Source: a virus
Length of the DNA stretch: 64,000 nt
IMG/VR virus record: IMGVR_UViG_3300014781_000001
Direction: 5' to 3' (one strand)
Of this stretch, positions 2,264 through 64,000 are shown piece by piece. The notes beneath the pieces were generated by a model, which saw only the letters and a program-made list of their open reading frames with translations, made no database searches and was not told where the DNA came from. Positions within the stretch are counted from its first letter, which is position 1. Each line of letters opens with the position of its first letter. The position numbers were made by a program, and so were the translations under genes.

Positions 2264-3022
2264 ATGAGCATGTTAGGTTTTACATTCATCACAGACAGCA
2301 AGCTGTCAATGTACAGGGAGAAAGCTATTAAATCCGAAAATCTTGCAAAAGAAATTGAGGAAATGCAGGATAAGGCCGCTTCTTACAAGGAAAGGCTTTC
2401 CGAACTCAAGTCAGATATCGCTTCAAAGGATAAAGAGATTTTATCTGTTGGCAAAGATCTTTCTGAGTCTAAGGAAAAGATTGACGCCTTGAAGGAAAAT
2501 CAGAAAAAGTTGATAAAAAGCGTCAAGAAGAAAACGGAAGAACTTGATGCGACCAAGGCTGATCTTGACAAAGCTAAGTCTGATCTTGATGAGGCTAATT
2601 ACAAAATCAGCAACTTGGAAGAAAAGAAAAACAGTATCTCATTTGAATTAAAAAAGAAATCAAATGAATTGATTGAAGCCAGGATCAGAATCGGAGATTT
2701 GGAAAATGAGGTTTCTATTGGAGCCAAGGCAATACTGGAGTTAGAATCGAAGCTGAAATTAATGCAAGTAGAATTAAGAGGCTACCAAATAGGTATAATC
2801 GGGAAAGATAAAAACAATGTCGCTGAGCCGGAATTGGATAAAGATGAGGAGTCAGATAAGGATGTGGCAGAATCGGAGAAATTTGATAAAAATAAGGAAG
2901 TTAAATACAATACGCTTCTTGATACAGATGTGATTCAGGAAGAAGCAGGTGACATTGTGGAGCCCGAAAACGAAGCTGAACGAGTAAAAGACACTAAAAA
3001 GAAGAAGAAAAAAAAGAAGTAG
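2264..3022 (+). CDS. coiled-coil protein with a poly-lysine C-terminus
   Basis: Heptad-like K/E/L-rich sequence ending in KKKKKKKK. Confidence 0.5.
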   Translation: MSMLGFTFITDSKLSMYREKAIKSENLAKEIEEMQDKAASYKERLSELKSDIASKDKEILSVGKDLSESKEKIDALKENQKKLIKSVKKKTEELDATKADLDKAKSDLDEANYKISNLEEKKNSISFELKKKSNELIEARIRIGDLENEVSIGAKAILELESKLKLMQVELRGYQIGIIGKDKNNVAEPELDKDEESDKDVAESEKFDKNKEVKYNTLLDTDVIQEEAGDIVEPENEAERVKDTKKKKKKKK

Positions 3023-3130
3023 GTATTTTAATCCTTTTTATATTTTAATGTTTGCCATATTATGGGTTAGTACTTAACTTTGCGTTGAGAGAGTTTTTAG
3101 GATAATTATTGGTTAAAAATTTAGCTGTTA

Positions 3131-3167: not shown

Positions 3168-3240
3168 GGTCCTGTGGCTTAGTGGTGAAAGCAAGATGCT
3201 CATAACATCGAGATCGTGGGTTCAAATCCCTCCGGGACCA
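3168..3240 (+). tRNA. tRNA-Met(CAT): tRNA-Met/Ile2 (anticodon CAT)
   Basis: Acceptor ggtcctg/cgggacc, anticodon loop cTCATAa, T-loop GGTTCAAATCC. There is one U-U mismatch in the T-stem. Confidence 0.6.
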
Positions 3241-3241
3241 C

Positions 3242-3312
3242 TGTCCAATGGTGTAGTGGTAGCACAACAGATTTTGGTTCTGTTAGCGGAGGTTCGAATC
3301 CTCCTTGGATAA
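3242..3312 (+). tRNA. tRNA-Gln(TTG): tRNA-Gln (anticodon TTG)
   Basis: Folded by hand as a full cloverleaf. Acceptor tgtccaa/ttggata with a G-U pair, D-stem gtgt/gcac, anticodon stem acaga/tctgt, loop ttTTGgt, T-arm ggagg-ttcgaat-cctcc. Confidence 0.85.
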
Positions 3313-3382
3313 CGGTACATATTTTGTGTAAAGTGTTAATTATCTAAGTGTTTGTGGTGTGTGAACATAGCAAACATTAAAT

Positions 3383-3454
3383 GGCCCATTAGTTTAACGG
3401 ATAAAACCCTTGAGTCCTAATCAAAAGTTGCCTGTTCGATTCAGGCATGGGCTA
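3383..3454 (+). tRNA. tRNA-Arg(CCT): tRNA-Arg (anticodon CCT)
   Basis: Acceptor ggcccat/atgggct, D-stem gttt/aaac, anticodon loop gtCCTaa, T-arm gcctg-ttcgatt-caggc. There is one C-A mismatch at the base of the anticodon stem. Confidence 0.7.
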
Positions 3455-3457
3455 CAT

Positions 3458-3529
3458 GGCTTGTTGGATGAGTGGTTTAGTCAGGGATCTGCAAAATCTC
3501 GTAGGGCGGTTCGATTCCGCCACAAGCCT
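3458..3529 (+). tRNA. tRNA-Cys(GCA): tRNA-Cys (anticodon GCA)
   Basis: Acceptor ggcttgt/acaagcc (perfect), anticodon stem gggat/atctc, loop ctGCAaa, T-arm ggcgg-ttcgatt-ccgcc. Confidence 0.8.
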
Positions 3530-3546: not shown

Positions 3547-4239
3547 ATGAACTACCCAGAGCAACAAATGCTTAAGATCCTTAATAGGGATCTGTTAAGT
3601 AATCCGATGTATGTTATTAACAATCTTCATATATATGATTGGGAATCTGACTTCCTGGCCATAACAAGATCATTGTACGCTTATGAAGTAGAGGTCAAGA
3701 TGTCTAAACAAGATTTCTTTAACGACTTCAAAAAGGATAAAAAACATAAGGTTCTTAAAGACGGCATTATTAAGGTAGGTGGTGTCATAAGCTATCCTCC
3801 AAACTATTTCTATTACGCCTGTCCTCCTAATATGATTGACGTAAGTGAAGTTCCGTCTTATGCCGGGCTTATTTATGTCGATGTTAGTAAAAATAGGAAG
3901 AACGTCGTTAAGGTCGCACCTTTAATTCATAGACAGAAGTTTGATGTAGTGGGTAGGAAACTGGTGGATAAGTTTTACTACAATATGCTTACTTGGAAGA
4001 AAAGAGCTATTTCAAACGTGTATGCTGACCCGGCCAAGGAAAGAGAGAAAGGCGTGCGTGCCGGAGCTGAGGCTGTGAGGAAGTCGGCCTGGGATGCGTT
4101 CAGGGCGCAGTGCCCGCACATTGCTTTCCCCTATGGAAAAGAATTTCCGATGTGTGATGATCACGAACAAGATCATCCCATGAGAGACTGCATACTTCAG
4201 TGTGAAAAAGGTAGAATATTTAAAAACAAATTAAAATGA
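3547..4239 (+). CDS. hypothetical protein with a possible PD-(D/E)xK-like D..ESD..EVEVK pattern and a C-terminal Cys/His cluster
   Basis: YDWESDFLAITRSLYAYEVEVK, and the C-terminal CPH..C..H..H..C..C cluster. Confidence 0.45.
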   Translation: MNYPEQQMLKILNRDLLSNPMYVINNLHIYDWESDFLAITRSLYAYEVEVKMSKQDFFNDFKKDKKHKVLKDGIIKVGGVISYPPNYFYYACPPNMIDVSEVPSYAGLIYVDVSKNRKNVVKVAPLIHRQKFDVVGRKLVDKFYYNMLTWKKRAISNVYADPAKEREKGVRAGAEAVRKSAWDAFRAQCPHIAFPYGKEFPMCDDHEQDHPMRDCILQCEKGRIFKNKLK

Positions 4240-6663: not shown

Positions 6664-7585
6664 ATCGGATTTAGATGGCGTTGTATCGGCAGCCATCGCA
6701 ACCATGTACGAAAACAGTAAAGACAGGGATGTTGTTTATATCCCGTATTCGTATGAAGATGATGTTAAGAAAGTTACCAGCAAAGTGCGTGATTTAGATG
6801 CTGTTTATGTTCTTGACGTGTCTTTCGGAGCCGATTCTAAAACAGTTTTCAAAAAGTGGCTTGATGAAGGAAAGAGCCTGATGTGGATAGATCACCATAA
6901 GGGAATTATCGAAGATAGTAAGACATGGGGGTTCGTAGTTCCAGGGTTGAGGAGAGTCGGCGTCGGTGCGTGCGCTCTGGCTTCGGACCTGCTTATGGGG
7001 AAGGTGCCGGCGATCGTCCGGTGCCTGTCAGACTACGATGTGTGGAATAAAGAATCTGAATTAGGTTGGGATACGGTAGTAGCTATCCAGTATGCCTTGA
7101 GATCAAAAATAAGACTCAATGTATTAATAGCATTGTCGTATTTGTATGACCATTTTAAAGAAGATATGAAGGACAATGAAATTGATCTTATTTTTTATGA
7201 TCTCGCTAAAGAAGGACGTGCTATAATTAATTACATGGCTGGTAAAAACGAACAAGAGGTAAGTGCGTATTCGTTTGAAGCTTACGTCGATGAGGTGAAG
7301 GTAGTGGCGATGAATACCACCGAATTTAGTTCTAAGGTATTTGATTCTCTTACACCGGACTGGTTAGACGGTAGGAAAATTAAAGCCCTGATGCCATTTT
7401 GTATCATTCCAGGCGGTAAAGTCCGGTTCTCTCTTTATGAATGCGTGGAAGACAGCGCGGATTGCTGTGAGGTAAGTAAAAGATTCGGTGGTGGAGGACA
7501 TGCTGGTGCTGCTGGGTTTGTGCTTGATGTCACGGATATCAGATTCAGGGAATTTATAGAAAAACATAAACTTATATCACAATGA
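6629..7585 (+). CDS. DHH-DHHA1 family phosphoesterase (NrnA/RecJ-like nanoRNase)
   Basis: HKSDLDGVVSA (motif I), WIDHHKG (DHH motif), C-terminal GGGGHAGAAGF (DHHA1 GGGH). Confidence 0.7.
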   Translation: MKVKKTAIVYHKSDLDGVVSAAIATMYENSKDRDVVYIPYSYEDDVKKVTSKVRDLDAVYVLDVSFGADSKTVFKKWLDEGKSLMWIDHHKGIIEDSKTWGFVVPGLRRVGVGACALASDLLMGKVPAIVRCLSDYDVWNKESELGWDTVVAIQYALRSKIRLNVLIALSYLYDHFKEDMKDNEIDLIFYDLAKEGRAIINYMAGKNEQEVSAYSFEAYVDEVKVVAMNTTEFSSKVFDSLTPDWLDGRKIKALMPFCIIPGGKVRFSLYECVEDSADCCEVSKRFGGGGHAGAAGFVLDVTDIRFREFIEKHKLISQ

Positions 7586-7974
7586 AGTGCGAACTGTATC
7601 AATTTTCCCCACAAGTCTATCCCTTTAATCTGTGGATATATGTAGGTAAAGATGTTTCTGGTATAGTAGAGTGTTTCAATAACGATTTTAGTTACATAGA
7701 TAATAGTATGGGCGCAACCATAACCGTACCGTATGGAGGATGCAAATTAGATCCTTGCACAGGATTCTTGATATGGTTTATTAATAAGAACGTTATTGAT
7801 TTTAACACAGTCTCACACGAAGCAGCCCATGTGTCTCTCAATGCATTTGATTTCTTAGGAGAAAAAGTAATGAAATCAGAACCTTTCTGCTACCTCGTTG
7901 GATGGGTGGCAGGAAAGTGTGAAGAAGTAAAGAAAGGAAAAGTACGAGATAAATTAATATGGGAAAGTAAGTGA
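7582..7974 (+). CDS. hypothetical protein with an HEAAH (HExxH-like) motif, possibly a small metallopeptidase
   Basis: TVSHEAAHVSLNAFDF. Confidence 0.35.
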   Translation: MKCELYQFSPQVYPFNLWIYVGKDVSGIVECFNNDFSYIDNSMGATITVPYGGCKLDPCTGFLIWFINKNVIDFNTVSHEAAHVSLNAFDFLGEKVMKSEPFCYLVGWVAGKCEEVKKGKVRDKLIWESK

Positions 7975-37850: not shown

Positions 37851-38383
37851 GAGGCGAAATTTGCCCTTATTGCGGAAGAGAAACCGAGTTGGTCAATGCC
37901 GATAAAATATATAGCAGAAAAGGCTTAGGGATGGTTATGATGTGTAAACCATGCAATGCTTATGTCGGTGTTCATGAATCAGGGCCGAATAAGGGAAAAG
38001 CTAAAGGCCGGCTTGCGGGCCCATCACTAAGGTCTCTTAAAATAAGAGTCCATGCCGAACTTGATAGACTATGGTCTACGCCAGAGGAACGGGAAAGGAT
38101 GTATAAAGATTTATCTGAATTTCTATCTATACCGGAAGAGTACACACATATAGGTATGTTTGGCGAGAAGACGATGGGAAAAATCTTTCAGTTCTGTCAT
38201 GTAAACAAAGAGCGATCAGGTTCGAGAATAGAATGGCATAAACCTGGAGATAAGTGCCCTAATAAGAACAATCAAATAGTGTCAGGAAGTAGCGCATGTA
38301 GAGGATGTCCTGAGTATCTTCATGATGAGAAAGACGGGTATGTCTGGTGTGATCCTGATATGAGTTACGGCAGGTTGAAATAG
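37817..38383 (+). CDS. zinc-ribbon protein
   Basis: CPYCGRE...CKPCNAY and CRGCPEY. Confidence 0.5.
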   Translation: MELNVRQQRILRGEICPYCGRETELVNADKIYSRKGLGMVMMCKPCNAYVGVHESGPNKGKAKGRLAGPSLRSLKIRVHAELDRLWSTPEERERMYKDLSEFLSIPEEYTHIGMFGEKTMGKIFQFCHVNKERSGSRIEWHKPGDKCPNKNNQIVSGSSACRGCPEYLHDEKDGYVWCDPDMSYGRLK

Positions 38384-42117: not shown

Positions 42118-43818
42118 ATGACAACAATCATGTACGTGTCAGCTATCTTAGCTGTAGTGATTATTTTGACAATCATCGGAGTCTTATCAAGGTATCGTAG
42201 ATGTAAGCCTAATCAGGTCTTGGTCGTTTATGGTAAGACAGGTGGGGAAAAGAAGTCGGCGAAATTATATCATGGTGGAGCGGCATTTGTCTTACCTATT
42301 ATTCAAAGCTATGATGTTTTGTCAATGGAGCCTATGCAAATAGATTGCAAGCTTACCGGTGCTTTATCATCTCAGAATATTAGAGTAGATGTACCTACGA
42401 CTATTACAGTAGCTATCAGTACAAATCCAGAAATCATGCAAAATGCGGCAGAAAGACTTTTGGGGATGAATACCGAATCTACTGAAAATCTTATTACGGA
42501 CATCGTTTACGGTCAGATGCGTTTGATTATTGCTGAAATGACAATCGAAAAACTTAATTCTGACAGGGATGAGTTTTTGGATAAGGCGAGAAAGAACATT
42601 GATAACGAGCTTAACAAGTTAGGTCTTTACCTCCTGAACATCAACATCAGTGACATCAGAGACGAAGCCGGTTATATTATGAACCTTGGTAAGGAGGCTG
42701 AAAGTAGGGCTCTGAACGAAGCACAGGCTAATATCGAAGAACAGGAGAAGCTGGGGGCTATTAAGATTGCTGTACAGCAGAAGGAGAAAGAAACGGCTGT
42801 GGCTAATACCAAAAAAGAACAAGAGATTCAAATTGCTTGTACTGAAAAAGAAAAGGAAACAATAGTAGCTGAAACGAAGAAAGAAAAAGAAATAGCCTTG
42901 GCTTTAACCGATAAAGAGAAACAGATCGGCGTAGCTCAAGCAGATAGAGACAGGGCTGCGGTTATCGCAAAAACTTTAACCGACAAGGAATTGGCGATCG
43001 TAAGATCTAAGGCAGAACTTGAAGTAAATAAAGCCGAGGCTGAAAGGATGGAAGAAGTCGGAAAGAATAAGGCTGAAGCTGACAAGGAAGCAGCTATAGC
43101 AATACAAGACTCTGAAGCTCAGATTAAGAAGGCTGAGGCTGAGAAAAATGCGTCTATAGGATACAACAATGCACAGAAGGAGGTTGCTGTGTCAGTATCA
43201 GAACTACAGATCATCAAAGCTCAATCAGAGAAGAAGGCCGGAGAAGAAAAAGTTAAATCGGAAGCGGCTGTAAAAACAGCAAAAGAGCTTGCCGACAAAG
43301 AAGTGGAAGAAGCTAAGGCTAAGAAAGTTCAGGCTGCGCTTAAGGCTGAAAAGATTGTGCCGGCTGAAACCCAGAAGGAAGAGGCTATCTTGCAAGCTGA
43401 TGCCGAGGCCGAGAAGATCAAACGCCGGGCTGAGGCTGAGGCAGCAGCACATTTGGCAAAAGCTGAGGCAGAGGCAAAAGCTATTCAGATGAAGCTGGAG
43501 GCAGAAGCCGAAGGTAAGAAAAAGTCGTTAATGGCAGAAGCCGACGGATTTAAGGCTATGGTGGAAGCAGCAGAATCCAATCCTCAGATCGCCATCCAGT
43601 ACAAGATGGTTAATCAGTGGAAAGAAATTGCCGGAGAACAGGTTAAGGCATTTGAGCACATTAACCTCGGAAATATCACGGTATTTGACGGCGGTCAGAA
43701 CAGTACCGGTAATTTCCTTAACAATGTTGTCAAGACCGTCGCTCCGGCATTGGGAGTCATTGATCAGCTTCCGATTGCAGATACTTTAAAGAAGTTAAAG
43801 GGAGATGACAAAAAATAA
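42118..43818 (+). CDS. SPFH/band-7 protein, flotillin (YqiK)-like, with a long EA-repeat coiled coil
   Basis: N-terminal TM, then RYRRCKPNQVLVVYGK...AFVLPIIQSYDVLSMEPMQID, then many (K)AEAE repeats. Confidence 0.85.
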   Translation: MTTIMYVSAILAVVIILTIIGVLSRYRRCKPNQVLVVYGKTGGEKKSAKLYHGGAAFVLPIIQSYDVLSMEPMQIDCKLTGALSSQNIRVDVPTTITVAISTNPEIMQNAAERLLGMNTESTENLITDIVYGQMRLIIAEMTIEKLNSDRDEFLDKARKNIDNELNKLGLYLLNINISDIRDEAGYIMNLGKEAESRALNEAQANIEEQEKLGAIKIAVQQKEKETAVANTKKEQEIQIACTEKEKETIVAETKKEKEIALALTDKEKQIGVAQADRDRAAVIAKTLTDKELAIVRSKAELEVNKAEAERMEEVGKNKAEADKEAAIAIQDSEAQIKKAEAEKNASIGYNNAQKEVAVSVSELQIIKAQSEKKAGEEKVKSEAAVKTAKELADKEVEEAKAKKVQAALKAEKIVPAETQKEEAILQADAEAEKIKRRAEAEAAAHLAKAEAEAKAIQMKLEAEAEGKKKSLMAEADGFKAMVEAAESNPQIAIQYKMVNQWKEIAGEQVKAFEHINLGNITVFDGGQNSTGNFLNNVVKTVAPALGVIDQLPIADTLKKLKGDDKK

Positions 43819-43999
43819 ATACAATGGCCCAAGGTTACACTTGGGCCTAATTGAAGAAATAAAAGCAGCATTCATAGATTTCCTGCCGGCGGAAACAGTG
43901 CTTTTAAGTGCTTTACTAATTACGATATTTTTAACATGGATTTTGGACAAGATTTAGAACCAGAAGAACTGACCAATCATTATGATCAGTGTTATAACC

Positions 44000-44345
44000 C
44001 CAAATAGTATTAAACCAATATAATTCTATTATAAAAGTTTAATACATCTCTTTAAGAGATCGGGTTATTAGCCTAAGCCTTGAAACAAAGGCTACGTTAT
44101 TTAAGAATAGATAGTTACCTACGGATGTTTGCCCAAGTCTGTAGCTCTAAGGTAAGTGATTAAACAGTTCTGGTATTCAGGAACAGTGTTGCTTATTCAA
44201 AACCTTAAATAACATTGGCGATGGGTACTTACAGGAGAAATCCTGACTTATCCCTAACGGGATTTACATCTACCAAGGAGACCGAAAGGTCTCCGAGGGG
44301 ATGTATTAAAACATACGAATAGCTTTAAATATATTTAATAGAATA
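44000..44345 (+). ncRNA. candidate structured non-coding RNA related to the iscB upstream (omega-RNA) region
   Basis: 530-bp gap with no ORF. Positions 44199-44234 are 35/36 identical to the sequence 48 nt upstream of the iscB start (reverse complement of 63961-63996). Hairpins present: ccc-taac-ggg and ggagacc-GAAA-ggtctcc. Confidence 0.35.
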
Positions 44346-44351
44346 TGGGAT

Positions 44352-44699
44352 ATGGAATTGATTTTGAAACAGAAGAAGAGGAGGATGAAGAGTATGACTG
44401 ATGGGGAATTTGTATTGGATAATAAGAAAAAGGTTGTTGTAAGAAAAAGAATATCTTATTTAAACAAAGGTGATAAAGTATGGATCGTGTCTTCCGACGG
44501 GTATCTGCTACACACGGACGTAGTTAGAGCCGAACGCGGACGGTCTTATGTGGATATAGATGGTATCCTGTATTGGAAACGAGGATTAGATGGCAAGCAT
44601 CGTAATCGTAATAACTACATGCAGTTCGCCATGACGCCGGAGGACGGTAAGAAGTATGTCGTATATTACCTAGAAGGATTTAAAGACAATGACTTATGA
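44352..44699 (+). CDS. hypothetical basic protein
   Basis: ORF track. Confidence 0.5.
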   Translation: MELILKQKKRRMKSMTDGEFVLDNKKKVVVRKRISYLNKGDKVWIVSSDGYLLHTDVVRAERGRSYVDIDGILYWKRGLDGKHRNRNNYMQFAMTPEDGKKYVVYYLEGFKDNDL

Positions 44700-45715
44700 T
44701 GGTCCCGGAAACGCATTTGCTATATAAGGAGTTTAATGGTGTGAAACGTCTTGCCATATCTTATTCCCAGATAGATACGTTTCTTACCTGTCCAATGAAA
44801 TGGTATAAAACTTACGTAGAGGGCAAAAGGTCTACAGAAAAACAAGAAGCTACGTCTTATGGTACGGTTATCCATAAGACACTGGAATACTTCTTTAAGA
44901 ACGGAAGACAGCCTTCTGGTAAAGACCTTGGAGAAGCAATAAGTTACTATTCCTATCAAGAAGACATACCTTGGCAATCACCGGAAAATATGATGATAGC
45001 CATGAAACAATCTGGGGAGCTTCTTGCTTGGATTGTGGATCTGTTCAAAAAAGACGGCAATAGGTTTATGATAGCTGATAGTGATCTTAATCCCTGTGAG
45101 AAACTTATCAGACACGGCGCTATAATTGGAGTCGAAGAAGATTTTGTGCTGCCGTATCGTCTTCCTAAGCCTGTTGATATAAATGGTGACGTTCATACAC
45201 ATGTGTACATAGTAGGATCGGTAGATCTTCATCTGGCTATAAAGAGCAAGAACGTAGTTCACCATTATGTCATAGATTGGAAATCAGGTAATAAGGTTTT
45301 TGATTCTAAGAAGTTGGAAACAAATTTACAGCATCCTATATATTCATTTTACATCTATAGAAGATATGGTGGGGTTCTACCAGATATGAACATCTATTTC
45401 TTTACCAGGACCAGGCAGTACCAAAAGGTTAAGGTAGATGAGGAACGTAAAACAAAATCTATAGAGATGCTAAATGACACTTTGTCTAAAATGTATGATT
45501 TTGAAGATAATAGTGTAAAATCATTTCAAGCGTACATCCAGGGAGCAGAAGGAGCCAGGTATAGCAAGCGGCGTGCCACCCTAAGCCAGCCTGTTTCGCA
45601 AAACAAGCTACCCTGCCCGTCAGCACTGTGTTATTATTGTGACTTTGGATTACATAACAAAAACGAATGCCCTTTCTCTTCGGATTGGGATCCGTCTAAA
45701 AAGATAAAACGATGA
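44696..45715 (+). CDS. Cas4-like PD-(D/E)xK nuclease with a four-cysteine cluster
   Basis: HHYVIDWKSGN is the (I/V)D(W/Y)K(S/T)G motif. One N-terminal Cys (FLTCPMKWY) and three C-terminal Cys (CPSALCYYC) are arranged as in Cas4/AddB Fe-S nucleases. Confidence 0.5.
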   Translation: MMVPETHLLYKEFNGVKRLAISYSQIDTFLTCPMKWYKTYVEGKRSTEKQEATSYGTVIHKTLEYFFKNGRQPSGKDLGEAISYYSYQEDIPWQSPENMMIAMKQSGELLAWIVDLFKKDGNRFMIADSDLNPCEKLIRHGAIIGVEEDFVLPYRLPKPVDINGDVHTHVYIVGSVDLHLAIKSKNVVHHYVIDWKSGNKVFDSKKLETNLQHPIYSFYIYRRYGGVLPDMNIYFFTRTRQYQKVKVDEERKTKSIEMLNDTLSKMYDFEDNSVKSFQAYIQGAEGARYSKRRATLSQPVSQNKLPCPSALCYYCDFGLHNKNECPFSSDWDPSKKIKR

Positions 45716-45881
45716 AATACGAGGACGTTCAAAAGTTAAGAACAAAATACCGGCAAGATCCGGAAGTTATAAACGTAGAATACATGAGAGACGTTGCTGT
45801 AAGATGTGGGAATTTCAAGAAAGCATTTGAACTTCAGGAGAAGCTGGAGGATATATGGTTTAACTACTTAAAGGGAGTCCA

Positions 45882-46211
45882 ATGAAAGAAGATCTAATAT
45901 GTGGAGTAGCGATCCTTTTGTATTTAGTTTTATTATACTTGCTCACGACAGCTTTCATAAAAACAGGTAGAGCAGTAGATCGTTATAAGATGAAGAAGAA
46001 AACTGACAAAATCAAAGTAGGTCAAAGATACGAACATAAGAACTACTTTGAGGATCCATTTGAAAGAGGCAAGCATGTGATTAAGATATTAGACATAAAA
46101 GAAGGGTACGTTCTATATGAGTACGAAGAAAAACCATATATACGTTCTTCTGTGAGTCTTGAAGATATTGTTAAAAAATACATTTTAATTACTGATGTTA
46201 AACACAAGTAA
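45882..46211 (+). CDS. hypothetical protein with an N-terminal TM helix
   Basis: ORF track. Confidence 0.45.
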   Translation: MKEDLICGVAILLYLVLLYLLTTAFIKTGRAVDRYKMKKKTDKIKVGQRYEHKNYFEDPFERGKHVIKILDIKEGYVLYEYEEKPYIRSSVSLEDIVKKYILITDVKHK

Positions 46212-62654: not shown

Positions 62655-62691
62655 GATACGTTTTTCTATTAAATTTATTAAATCCGTTCAT

Positions 62692-63912
62692 TTACTTTAA
62701 TATAATCGGATGCCTCTTCCCTCTAATGAGTTTAAACTTTTTGCGTGAAACATCTTTTGAATTTTCTCCGTTGAAATCCCTGATATTGAAACTCCCTGAT
62801 TTTCTCCTTCCATAAACAAAACATATTTTATTATTATACAACACTTTATCAAACAACCTAAAACCAAAAACCTCAAAAGGAGCTTGATTGTTTTTCTTCT
62901 TCCCCCCTTTTAAAATTTTCATTTTATGTATTTGTCTATTATGTCTACGAATTAAACGTTTTAAATATTGACGTTCGATTCGTTTCGCATTAATATTCTT
63001 AGAAATGACAAACGCGTCGGATGTATGGGATTTTTCAATCCCATATTTAATCCGATTATGTTTCGTAATGTAACCAAACGTCATAAAAACTCTGTCGTAT
63101 CTGGATTTTAACTCTTCATACAACCTCCATTTCATAATTCCCATTACGGCTGCGTCGCGAAGCGACTTGCCTCTTCTGATCTTTAAATCTATATTACCTT
63201 TATGGTATTCTTTGTGACATGTTTCACATAAAGTTATAAGATTAGAAGGGGAATCCCCTCCGGTTTTTCGAGACTCAATATGATGAACATTCAGTATAGA
63301 ATCTTTTGACTTGCCTTTACAATACTGGCATTTATGTCCATCTCTTGCTAAAACATACTCCCTTGTGTTCCAAAACTCAAGTTGATCACCTTCCTGGTAT
63401 TCTTTACCCGATATATTAGGATTCTTAATCTTTTGAGTATCGAATTGAGCTACTTCAATAACAATACGAAATATTGGTAGTATAGAGCATACATTATCAA
63501 TAACACGAATATGGGCGTCTATTTTGTACTTCACCGAAGGTGCTGTCCATCCTGGACGCTTGCTTTTTATTCTATTATTAAAACGAGGTTTTCTATATCT
63601 TAACCTGTTCCGTCTTGCTCTTCGTAGCTCCCTTCTGGTAGACAAAAGATCTACGATATCATTTCTAAGGATCACTTCACTACTGTAAAGTTCTTTGCTT
63701 TTCGTTGTAGCTGATAGACCAACATGCTTAGTTCCAGCATCAACGCCTAAAACAATTTCCTGTTTGTAATCAGATGTGACGTACGTTAATTTGATGGTAA
63801 ACGGACATAAGTTGACAACAACCGCCTTTTTGTCTTTAAGCAGTCGTCTTACCTTACCATGCCTTGTTGTGGGCATCAAAGGTTTACCATTTATGTCTTG
63901 TACGTACACCAT
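62692..63912 (-). CDS. iscB: IscB (OMEGA) RNA-guided RuvC-HNH nuclease
   Basis: N-terminal PLMP motif (NGKPLMPTT). RuvC-I GVDAGTKHVGLSA. Arg-rich bridge helix RRELRRARRNRLRYRKPRF. HNH CQYC...HHIESRKTGGDSPSNLITLCETCHKEYH. RuvC-III-like HTSDAFV. 406 aa in total. Confidence 0.85.
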   Translation of the reverse strand: MVYVQDINGKPLMPTTRHGKVRRLLKDKKAVVVNLCPFTIKLTYVTSDYKQEIVLGVDAGTKHVGLSATTKSKELYSSEVILRNDIVDLLSTRRELRRARRNRLRYRKPRFNNRIKSKRPGWTAPSVKYKIDAHIRVIDNVCSILPIFRIVIEVAQFDTQKIKNPNISGKEYQEGDQLEFWNTREYVLARDGHKCQYCKGKSKDSILNVHHIESRKTGGDSPSNLITLCETCHKEYHKGNIDLKIRRGKSLRDAAVMGIMKWRLYEELKSRYDRVFMTFGYITKHNRIKYGIEKSHTSDAFVISKNINAKRIERQYLKRLIRRHNRQIHKMKILKGGKKKNNQAPFEVFGFRLFDKVLYNNKICFVYGRRKSGSFNIRDFNGENSKDVSRKKFKLIRGKRHPIILK

Positions 63913-64000
63913 ATCTACAAACGTTTTTAATGTTTATTCAACATAAGTCAGAGTAAAACTCTGTTAGTACCCATCGCCAATGTTATTTAAGGTTTTTAGT
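63913..64000 (-). ncRNA. 3' part of the putative IscB omega-RNA (truncated by the window end)
   Basis: In IscB loci the omega-RNA lies directly upstream of and abuts the iscB start. The conserved 36-mer also found at 44.2 kb lies 48 nt upstream of the ATG. Confidence 0.4.

Follow-up and report, generated by a model that had tools for sequence, protein, structure and literature searches.

In OMEGA systems, the guide is encoded just beyond the transposon end (PMC10691335). Stand-alone omega-RNAs are known that work in trans with IscB (PMC10691335 and PMC9581776, each citing Altae-Tran 2021), and their biological role has been described as unknown (PMC10691335). PATEs that encode omega-RNAs have also been described (10.1101/2023.03.14.532601). 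The published target of ISC transposons is N|ATGA (PMC4810608), and the published TAMs of IsrB are NTG (PMC9581776). For OMEGA elements, homing between co-infecting phages is so far a theoretical proposal only (PMC13565253).

Here, we report on an orphan omega-RNA locus in a 64,000-nt stretch of a viral genome (IMG/VR record IMGVR_UViG_3300014781_000001; this whole stretch is referred to as the window). The orphan belongs to a known kind, that of stand-alone omega-RNAs or PATE-like ISC derivatives, found here in a new phage setting. The reading we favor, and hold to be somewhat probable, is that it is a 358-bp IscB derivative whose omega-RNA guides IscB supplied in trans to empty alleles of its own site, the element then homing by repair.

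The orphan omega-RNA and its surroundings

A scan of the whole window against Rfam gives one full-length match to HEARO (RF02033), the RNA family now called IscB omega-RNA, at 43994-44232 on the plus strand (112.9 bits, gathering score 83; E 1.7e-22). The match covers model positions 1-211 of 211. Thus, the region encodes a complete omega-RNA and not a mere look-alike, and the evidence exceeds what the first-pass annotation could see when it called the region omega-RNA-like. The RNA does not lie directly 5' of iscB, a placement that is usual for the family though not strictly required; iscB is found 18.3 kb away on the opposite strand and is the only candidate effector for it within the window; the next ORFs encode a 115-aa protein and a PD-(D/E)xK protein. 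We assign the guide and target of the orphan by analogy, from the guide position in OMEGA systems and the precedent of stand-alone omega-RNAs, and take the guide to be 16 nt long, a length assumed from OgeuIscB (Table 1). The predicted fold of the orphan (z-score -5.1) has a P1 helix in which AUAACCC (43994-44000) pairs with GGGUUAU, and a 3' scaffold hairpin formed by CAGG (44232-35) and CCUG (44242-45) and followed by ACUUAU.

The conserved 3' end of the scaffold (HEARO positions ~176-211) is the 36-mer AAAACCTTAAATAACATTGGCGATGGGTACTTACAG at 44199-44234 (+), for which the first-pass annotation had noted an inverted copy at 63961-63996 (-). This match stands, with 35/36 identity, an expected number of chance matches of 0.00, and none in 100 dinucleotide-preserving shuffles. 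The inverted copy had also been placed 48 nt upstream of iscB, where the 3' end of an omega-RNA is expected. Indeed, 63913-63960 lies between the inverted 36-mer and the ATG at 63912, and the last 38 nt of the window match the 3' part of the HEARO model on the minus strand (Table 1). A second short match, CTGACTTA, is present after both 36-mers, but the offset is unequal (8 nt versus 9 nt), contrary to what had been stated. The motif supplies the 3' arm of a hairpin whose stem covaries from one copy to the other (CAGG-agaaau-CCUG and CAGAG-uuuua-CUCUG).

The locus had been described as a 530-bp gap without ORFs. Within it, 43994-44351 (358 bp) is an inserted element, but the first ~140 nt of the supposed gap overlap a 50-aa ORF. 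This ORF (43805-43957) is an annotated gene in csAssE-Sib, the closest named phage (OR575929.1, 151 kb, human gut), which has neither iscB nor the orphan. The neighbors at the 3' side are those originally named, a 115-aa ORF (no Pfam match) and a 339-aa PD-(D/E)xK protein (PDDEXK_1, E 4e-20). We considered these genes as cargo or an alternative effector and rejected the idea: csAssE-Sib, which lacks the element, has both in the same order, so they are ordinary phage genes, and the right neighbors of other orphan copies are unrelated, which further rules out cargo. A sigma-70 promoter scan around the orphan yielded nothing exceeding background, and the terminator-like matches in the scan correspond to the flotillin terminator (other strand) and an internal omega-RNA stem.

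Table 1. Coordinates in the window of the orphan element, its predicted guide and target, and the iscB locus.
Feature	Position	Strand	Basis
Predicted guide, 16 nt, CATTATGATCAGTGTT	43978..43993	+	Flanking phage DNA directly 5' of HEARO position 1 and of the insertion boundary
Orphan omega-RNA scaffold	43994..44251	+	HEARO match; alignment to iscB-linked omega-RNAs up to ACTTAT
Orphan-specific tail and right end	44252..44351	+	In all orphan copies and all contexts; ends at window ~44351-44354
ATG, predicted TAM/target site	44352..44354	+	Directly 3' of the element; opens the 115-aa ORF as listed
Right end of the IscB element, 37 nt, ATGAACGGATTTAATAAATTTAATAGAAAAACGTATC	62655..62691	-	csAssE-Sib homology stops at 62657; same end in many relatives
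iscB (406 aa)	62692..63912	-	Pfam RRXRR 1.5e-59, HNH 4.6e-11
iscB leader with 3' end of the linked omega-RNA, inverted 36-mer included	63913..64000	-	Partial HEARO match, positions 173-211

Filled and empty alleles, derivation and spread

The unit 43994-44351 is a discrete 358-bp insertion, with a positional ambiguity of 1-3 nt (TAT). Over 43-48 kb and 56-62.66 kb, csAssE-Sib is ~95% identical to the window, collinear and in the same orientation; a literature search on csAssE returned nothing relevant. The empty site, ...CATTATGATCAGTGTT|ATGGAATTG..., is exact in csAssE-Sib and in 110 IMG/VR contigs (counted by the 25-mer of the empty junction), and the filled junction occurs in 15. In csAssE-Sib and the related contigs L058, L061, L066 and L070 the empty site reads ...CATTATGATCAGTGTT|ATGGAATTGATTTTG..., and the filled site minus the empty site equals the element exactly, with no target-site duplication. 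Position -17 distinguishes three flank haplotypes (AAT, AAG and AAA), and each of them is seen both filled and empty. At least 9 of the 15 filled contigs carry iscB; many iscB-bearing contigs retain the empty allele, so the spread is not sweeping. The insertion splits a small reading frame, and the downstream ORF now begins at the ATG that abuts the element. What is broken is either a 35-aa acidic ORF (MDFGQDLEPEELTNHYDQCYGIDFETEEEEDEEYD, 43937-44008) or the first four codons of a 119-aa CDS annotated in csAssE-Sib.

One suggestion of the first-pass annotation was that the 36-mers are inverted repeats bracketing the virion-gene segment 44.2-64.0 kb; in such a reading they would act as recombination sites that flip 19.7 kb of virion genes. 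The inverted orientation of the two 36-mers is the sole support for such an inversion, and we judge it extremely improbable, given that the element-free csAssE-Sib has the same orientation on both sides, that contig 111987 has the iscB and orphan arrangement of the window, and that no associated recombinase is seen. Each repeat is the end of an insertion of its own; the two insertions are independent, point in opposite directions and have an empty site each.

From the first base of the scaffold through ACTTAT (44251) the orphan can be aligned with the linked elements, and past this point the two diverge. The orphan-specific tail includes both hairpins listed in the first-pass annotation, CCC-taac-GGG (44252-44261) and the GGAGACC-gaaa-GGTCTCC hairpin GGAGACCgaaaGGTCTCC (44277-44294), and the latter, 57-74 nt from the element end, is absent in iscB-bearing elements. 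The last ~66 nt of the orphan align to the final ~25 nt of the iscB coding sequence and on into the 37-nt right end of the IscB element (local alignment score 49-57; shuffles 32.7 +/- 3.7, maximum 46). Both ends are common with iscB-coding elements, the left being the omega-RNA scaffold and the right a homologous 3' end, which indicates that the orphan is an internally deleted, protein-less derivative of an IscB transposon. Judged from its sequence, it is a 358-bp non-autonomous IscB (ISC, IS200/IS605-superfamily) element that lost iscB by internal deletion.

The earlier suggestion of a relic IscB or IS end therefore holds as far as derivation from an IscB element goes, but the orphan is not a local relic. 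Units of 358-365 bp with unrelated flanks occur in L045, L096, L135, L136 and L150 and twice in L155; each begins ATAACCCC and finishes ...TAATAGAATATGGGAT, and blastn places the unit boundaries at window ~43993 and ~44354 in at least nine differing 5' contexts. There are thus at least seven other insertion sites in related human-gut phages of ~80-160 kb, with exact empty counterparts for seven loci, so the unit is not a relic that decayed in place. The orphan copies are 86-100% identical to one another. The 26-nt core of the 36-mer is present in 95 viral stretches, and its 21-nt core is found in the genomes of only 1 of 185,579 bacterial and archaeal species (Vibrio olivae). It is therefore a repeat of the phage family and not of the host, and we rejected the possibility of a common host repeat.

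For every orphan and every iscB element, across three subfamilies, the right flank starts with ATG, which in most cases opens the phage gene that follows. This implies that insertions are tolerated because that gene retains its start. The right end of the IscB element of the window is likewise followed by an ATG (62654-62652), the start codon of a 101-aa ORF. That all elements abut an ATG agrees with the N|ATGA targets of ISC transposons and with NTG TAMs. The base after the ATG is G, A or T and never C at about 18 distinct sites, and a very short TAM/target, ATG(D), is suggested.

The window itself contains empty sites of other orphans. Position 3610|3611, just 3' of a tRNA cluster, is the empty site of the L150-type orphan, with a 15/16 guide match and then ATG; the cluster comprises four tRNA genes at 3168-3529 (Rfam tRNA, 46-66 bits) and is also present in L155. 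Position 319|320, before the ATG of ORF 320-1288, is the empty site of the L155-type orphan, with three guide mismatches. The L155 contig (147128) has two orphan omega-RNA elements 2.1 kb apart (724-970 and 2847-3093) and, 4.4 kb past them in the same orientation, an iscB-linked omega-RNA (7447-7683); a second iscB lies elsewhere. This contig amounts to a dispersed multi-guide set.

Compared to element-free genomes, several iscB elements and orphans carry deletions at the guide-side junction, and the junction at the ATG side is constant. For instance, iscB elements before the 101-aa gene (L001, L009, L121, L171) have lost 266-400 bp at the left relative to csAssE-Sib (L175, 100400-101800), and some orphans (among L059, L050 and L146) have left-side deletions of 12 bp and 87 bp. 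The losses beside these iscB elements are often located at TAT/TATAT microhomology with the scaffold start, and every guide-side deletion alters the guide. Tandem elements that recombine, self-cleavage beside ATA, and guide renewal are candidate origins. In L059, L050 and L146 the left junctions are altered, and the new 'guides' have no ATG after them in naive genomes, so some orphan copies may be inactive.

RNA conservation, the IscB effector and proposed homing

Taking the iscB-linked omega-RNAs of relatives as the comparison, similarity to the orphan extends far past the 36-mer, with 78-94% identity across nearly the whole scaffold. Together with the complete HEARO match, this bears out the early suggestion that the region holds a second omega-RNA. 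The first ~70 nt of the orphan are subfamily-specific, and P1 is formed by ATAACCC/GGGTTAT in orphans, ATATCCG/CGGATAT in family A and ATAATCG/CGATTAT in family B. For an alignment of 33 sequences, 22 from linked and 11 from orphan copies, RNAalifold predicts 52 pairs; compensatory changes are seen in 13.

Is the RNA of the orphan still in use? The copies could be inert debris: a MITE/PATE-like derivative that arose by deletion and was carried along passively by a transposase, its omega-RNA being out of use and conserved because the copies spread recently and were converted by linked ones. The high identity among orphan copies would fit recent spread, and the variable modules that orphan and linked omega-RNAs have in common would fit recombination; indeed, recombination with functional linked omega-RNAs, rather than selection in the orphans, may explain part of the compensatory variants. 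Guide-side deletions that leave some copies without a TAM-adjacent target and the minority status of the filled allele (15 versus 110 contigs) also point this way. However, 571 of 572 pair cells are canonical among 11 distinct orphan variants, with double compensatory changes in six pairs. In addition, the HEARO scores of orphans at other loci (91-107 bits) equal those of iscB-linked copies (89-111 bits), the scaffold is without disabling indels at all seven sites, and published stand-alone omega-RNAs are active in trans (PMC10691335). We consider inert debris an unlikely explanation, though one that deserves some weight. If homing is the wrong model, the orphan would be an ordinary non-autonomous transposon copy.

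The IscB of the window matches the OgeuIscB structures 7utn and 7xht (phmmer, E 2e-42). The HNH His and, in RuvC, the GxDxG, Glu and H..D motifs all align, and the protein is apparently intact in its domains and catalytic motifs. The visible 88 nt of the iscB leader are exact in seven relatives, all of which have a full omega-RNA upstream. These relatives carry two differing 5' scaffold types behind the same 88 nt, so the linked omega-RNA of the window is not reconstructable with certainty. L001, whose IscB is 99% identical, was rejected as a stand-in, its leader being only 52/88 identical. Relatives of IscB number 345 on IMG/VR viral contigs, mostly of 80-160 kb and from human-gut samples, and the iscB loci examined here are the best 80 of these 345. 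In one relative, a second iscB element (L021:9714-11258 / L169; corresponding to window 45714-45881) lies before the ATG of window ORF 45882-46211. It replaces the region of a 57-aa ORF and is 1.4 kb downstream of the same orphan, in the same orientation.

We infer that the orphan scaffold is compatible with the IscB of the window, and, by analogy with the published stand-alone omega-RNAs, action in trans with IscB appears to be the best supported of the three readings in the first-pass annotation. In the homing model, read-through transcription would yield an omega-RNA that takes the ~16 nt of phage sequence left of the element as its 5' guide, and the IscB encoded at 62692-63912 would bind it in trans. 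The complex would then cleave the guide 16-mer directly before an ATG TAM, which is the empty allele, either in a co-infecting related phage or at a site left after excision. Recombinational repair from a filled allele would copy the element in. With the element lying between guide match and TAM, the filled allele would be immune. To reach new ATG sites, the element would presumably rely on a Y1 (TnpA-type) transposase acting in trans.

A decoy or regulatory RNA, with the orphan titrating IscB or directing non-cleaving binding on downstream genes as TldR does, might be envisaged from the constant position of the element directly before a start codon, and domesticated nuclease-dead TnpB repressors exist (PMC10705468). 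However, the IscB of the window retains its catalytic motifs, the guide 16-mer matches within the window only its own disrupted insertion site and no promoter elsewhere, and the place before ATG is explained by a target/TAM specificity common to iscB-bearing elements. We regard such a role as very improbable.

The same parts could also serve a restorative role only, in which the element is not driven into co-infecting phages. This role has experimental support for bacterial TnpB/IscB elements (10.1101/2023.03.14.532601), precise empty sites are the expected product of scarless excision, and the phage family does have Y1 transposases. A complete IS605, made up of a 132-aa Y1 tnpA and a divergent 379-aa tnpB, is found in about 20 contigs of related phages, and one contig carries IS605, orphan and iscB together; the phage family thus hosts both TnpB-type and IscB-type OMEGA elements. 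In one example (L072:16414-18063) the IS605 is inserted after TTTAC, with right end ...GTCAA, and the window has the exact empty site at 38200|38201. TnpB-only IS605 derivatives also occur in relatives. The IS605 TnpA of relatives is not supported as the mobilizer of the orphan, as it targets TTAC and the ends are unrelated. No Y1 transposase was detected in the window by tblastn with an approximate IS608 TnpA query, and among the window and its relatives no cognate transposase with matching ends and target was identified for the orphan, which counts against restoration. Moreover, phage genomes are multicopy and recombine in co-infection, and the filled/empty polymorphism on three haplotypes fits transfer between genomes equally well or better. 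Restoration and homing are not mutually exclusive; a purely restorative role seems to us rather improbable.

More tentatively, and as a possibility we rate below the homing of the orphan itself, IscB and its protein-less omega-RNA satellites could constitute a natural RNA-guided gene drive in these gut phages, in which IscB cuts the empty alleles of co-infecting relatives, and maybe an inter-phage weapon. Each satellite would add one guide, and the satellite and flanking markers would be copied in without a transposase. Guide-side deletions by the scaffold would make new guides and so renew the targets. If true, it would be the first example in nature of 'non-restorative' OMEGA homing from one viral genome to another, and several selfish guides would share one nuclease in trans.

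Significance and relation to described systems

The locus offers a concrete natural test system for RNA-guided homing between viruses, with a defined 16-nt guide, a putative ATG TAM, an apparently intact IscB, the element-free csAssE-Sib, and more than 100 empty and 15 filled alleles. A single phage family hosts three iscB subfamilies, omega-RNA-only derivatives and IS605 tnpA/tnpB. This variety of OMEGA elements bears on genome mosaicism and on the mining of compact editors with a very short TAM.

Like the stand-alone omega-RNAs (Altae-Tran et al. 2021, as summarized in PMC10691335 and PMC9581776), the orphan is a locus without an adjacent effector or transposase in a genome that also has an effector-bearing IscB locus, is evidently mobilized, and would take its guide from flanking DNA. 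The published ones acted in trans with a compatible IscB, whereas use in trans is, for the orphan, drawn from this analogy. They were found in a bacterial chromosome, and the orphan resides in a virulent-type human-gut phage of ~150 kb. In contrast to them, the orphan also displays an origin by internal deletion with a retained right end, and filled and empty alleles across a phage population.

The orphan resembles the PATE-like IS200/IS605 elements of Meers et al. (10.1101/2023.03.14.532601) in that it is protein-less, keeps transposon ends and a guide-RNA scaffold, and would need both a nuclease and a transposase from other loci. The published PATEs are mostly TnpB-type, come from Geobacillus and have an identified cognate TnpA, whereas the orphan is IscB-type (HEARO) and has neither an identified cognate Y1 transposase nor clear subterminal hairpins. 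With the ISC transposons (Kapitonov, Makarova and Koonin 2016, PMC4810608) it shares insertion without duplication just before an ATG(A)-type target and the existence of non-autonomous elements, in a family defined by its termini. Unlike them, the orphan lacks iscB, its replicon is a phage, and its target appears to be ATG plus G, A or T and not strictly ATGA.

The predicted behavior of the orphan, cutting of the element-less allele in a co-infecting relative followed by recombinational copying, is that of the free-standing homing endonuclease genes of the Seg/Mob type in T-even phages (PMC13565253). In contrast to these, the orphan is outside any homing-endonuclease protein family, recognition would be RNA-guided, and the mobile unit would be the guide only, with the nuclease encoded 18 kb away.
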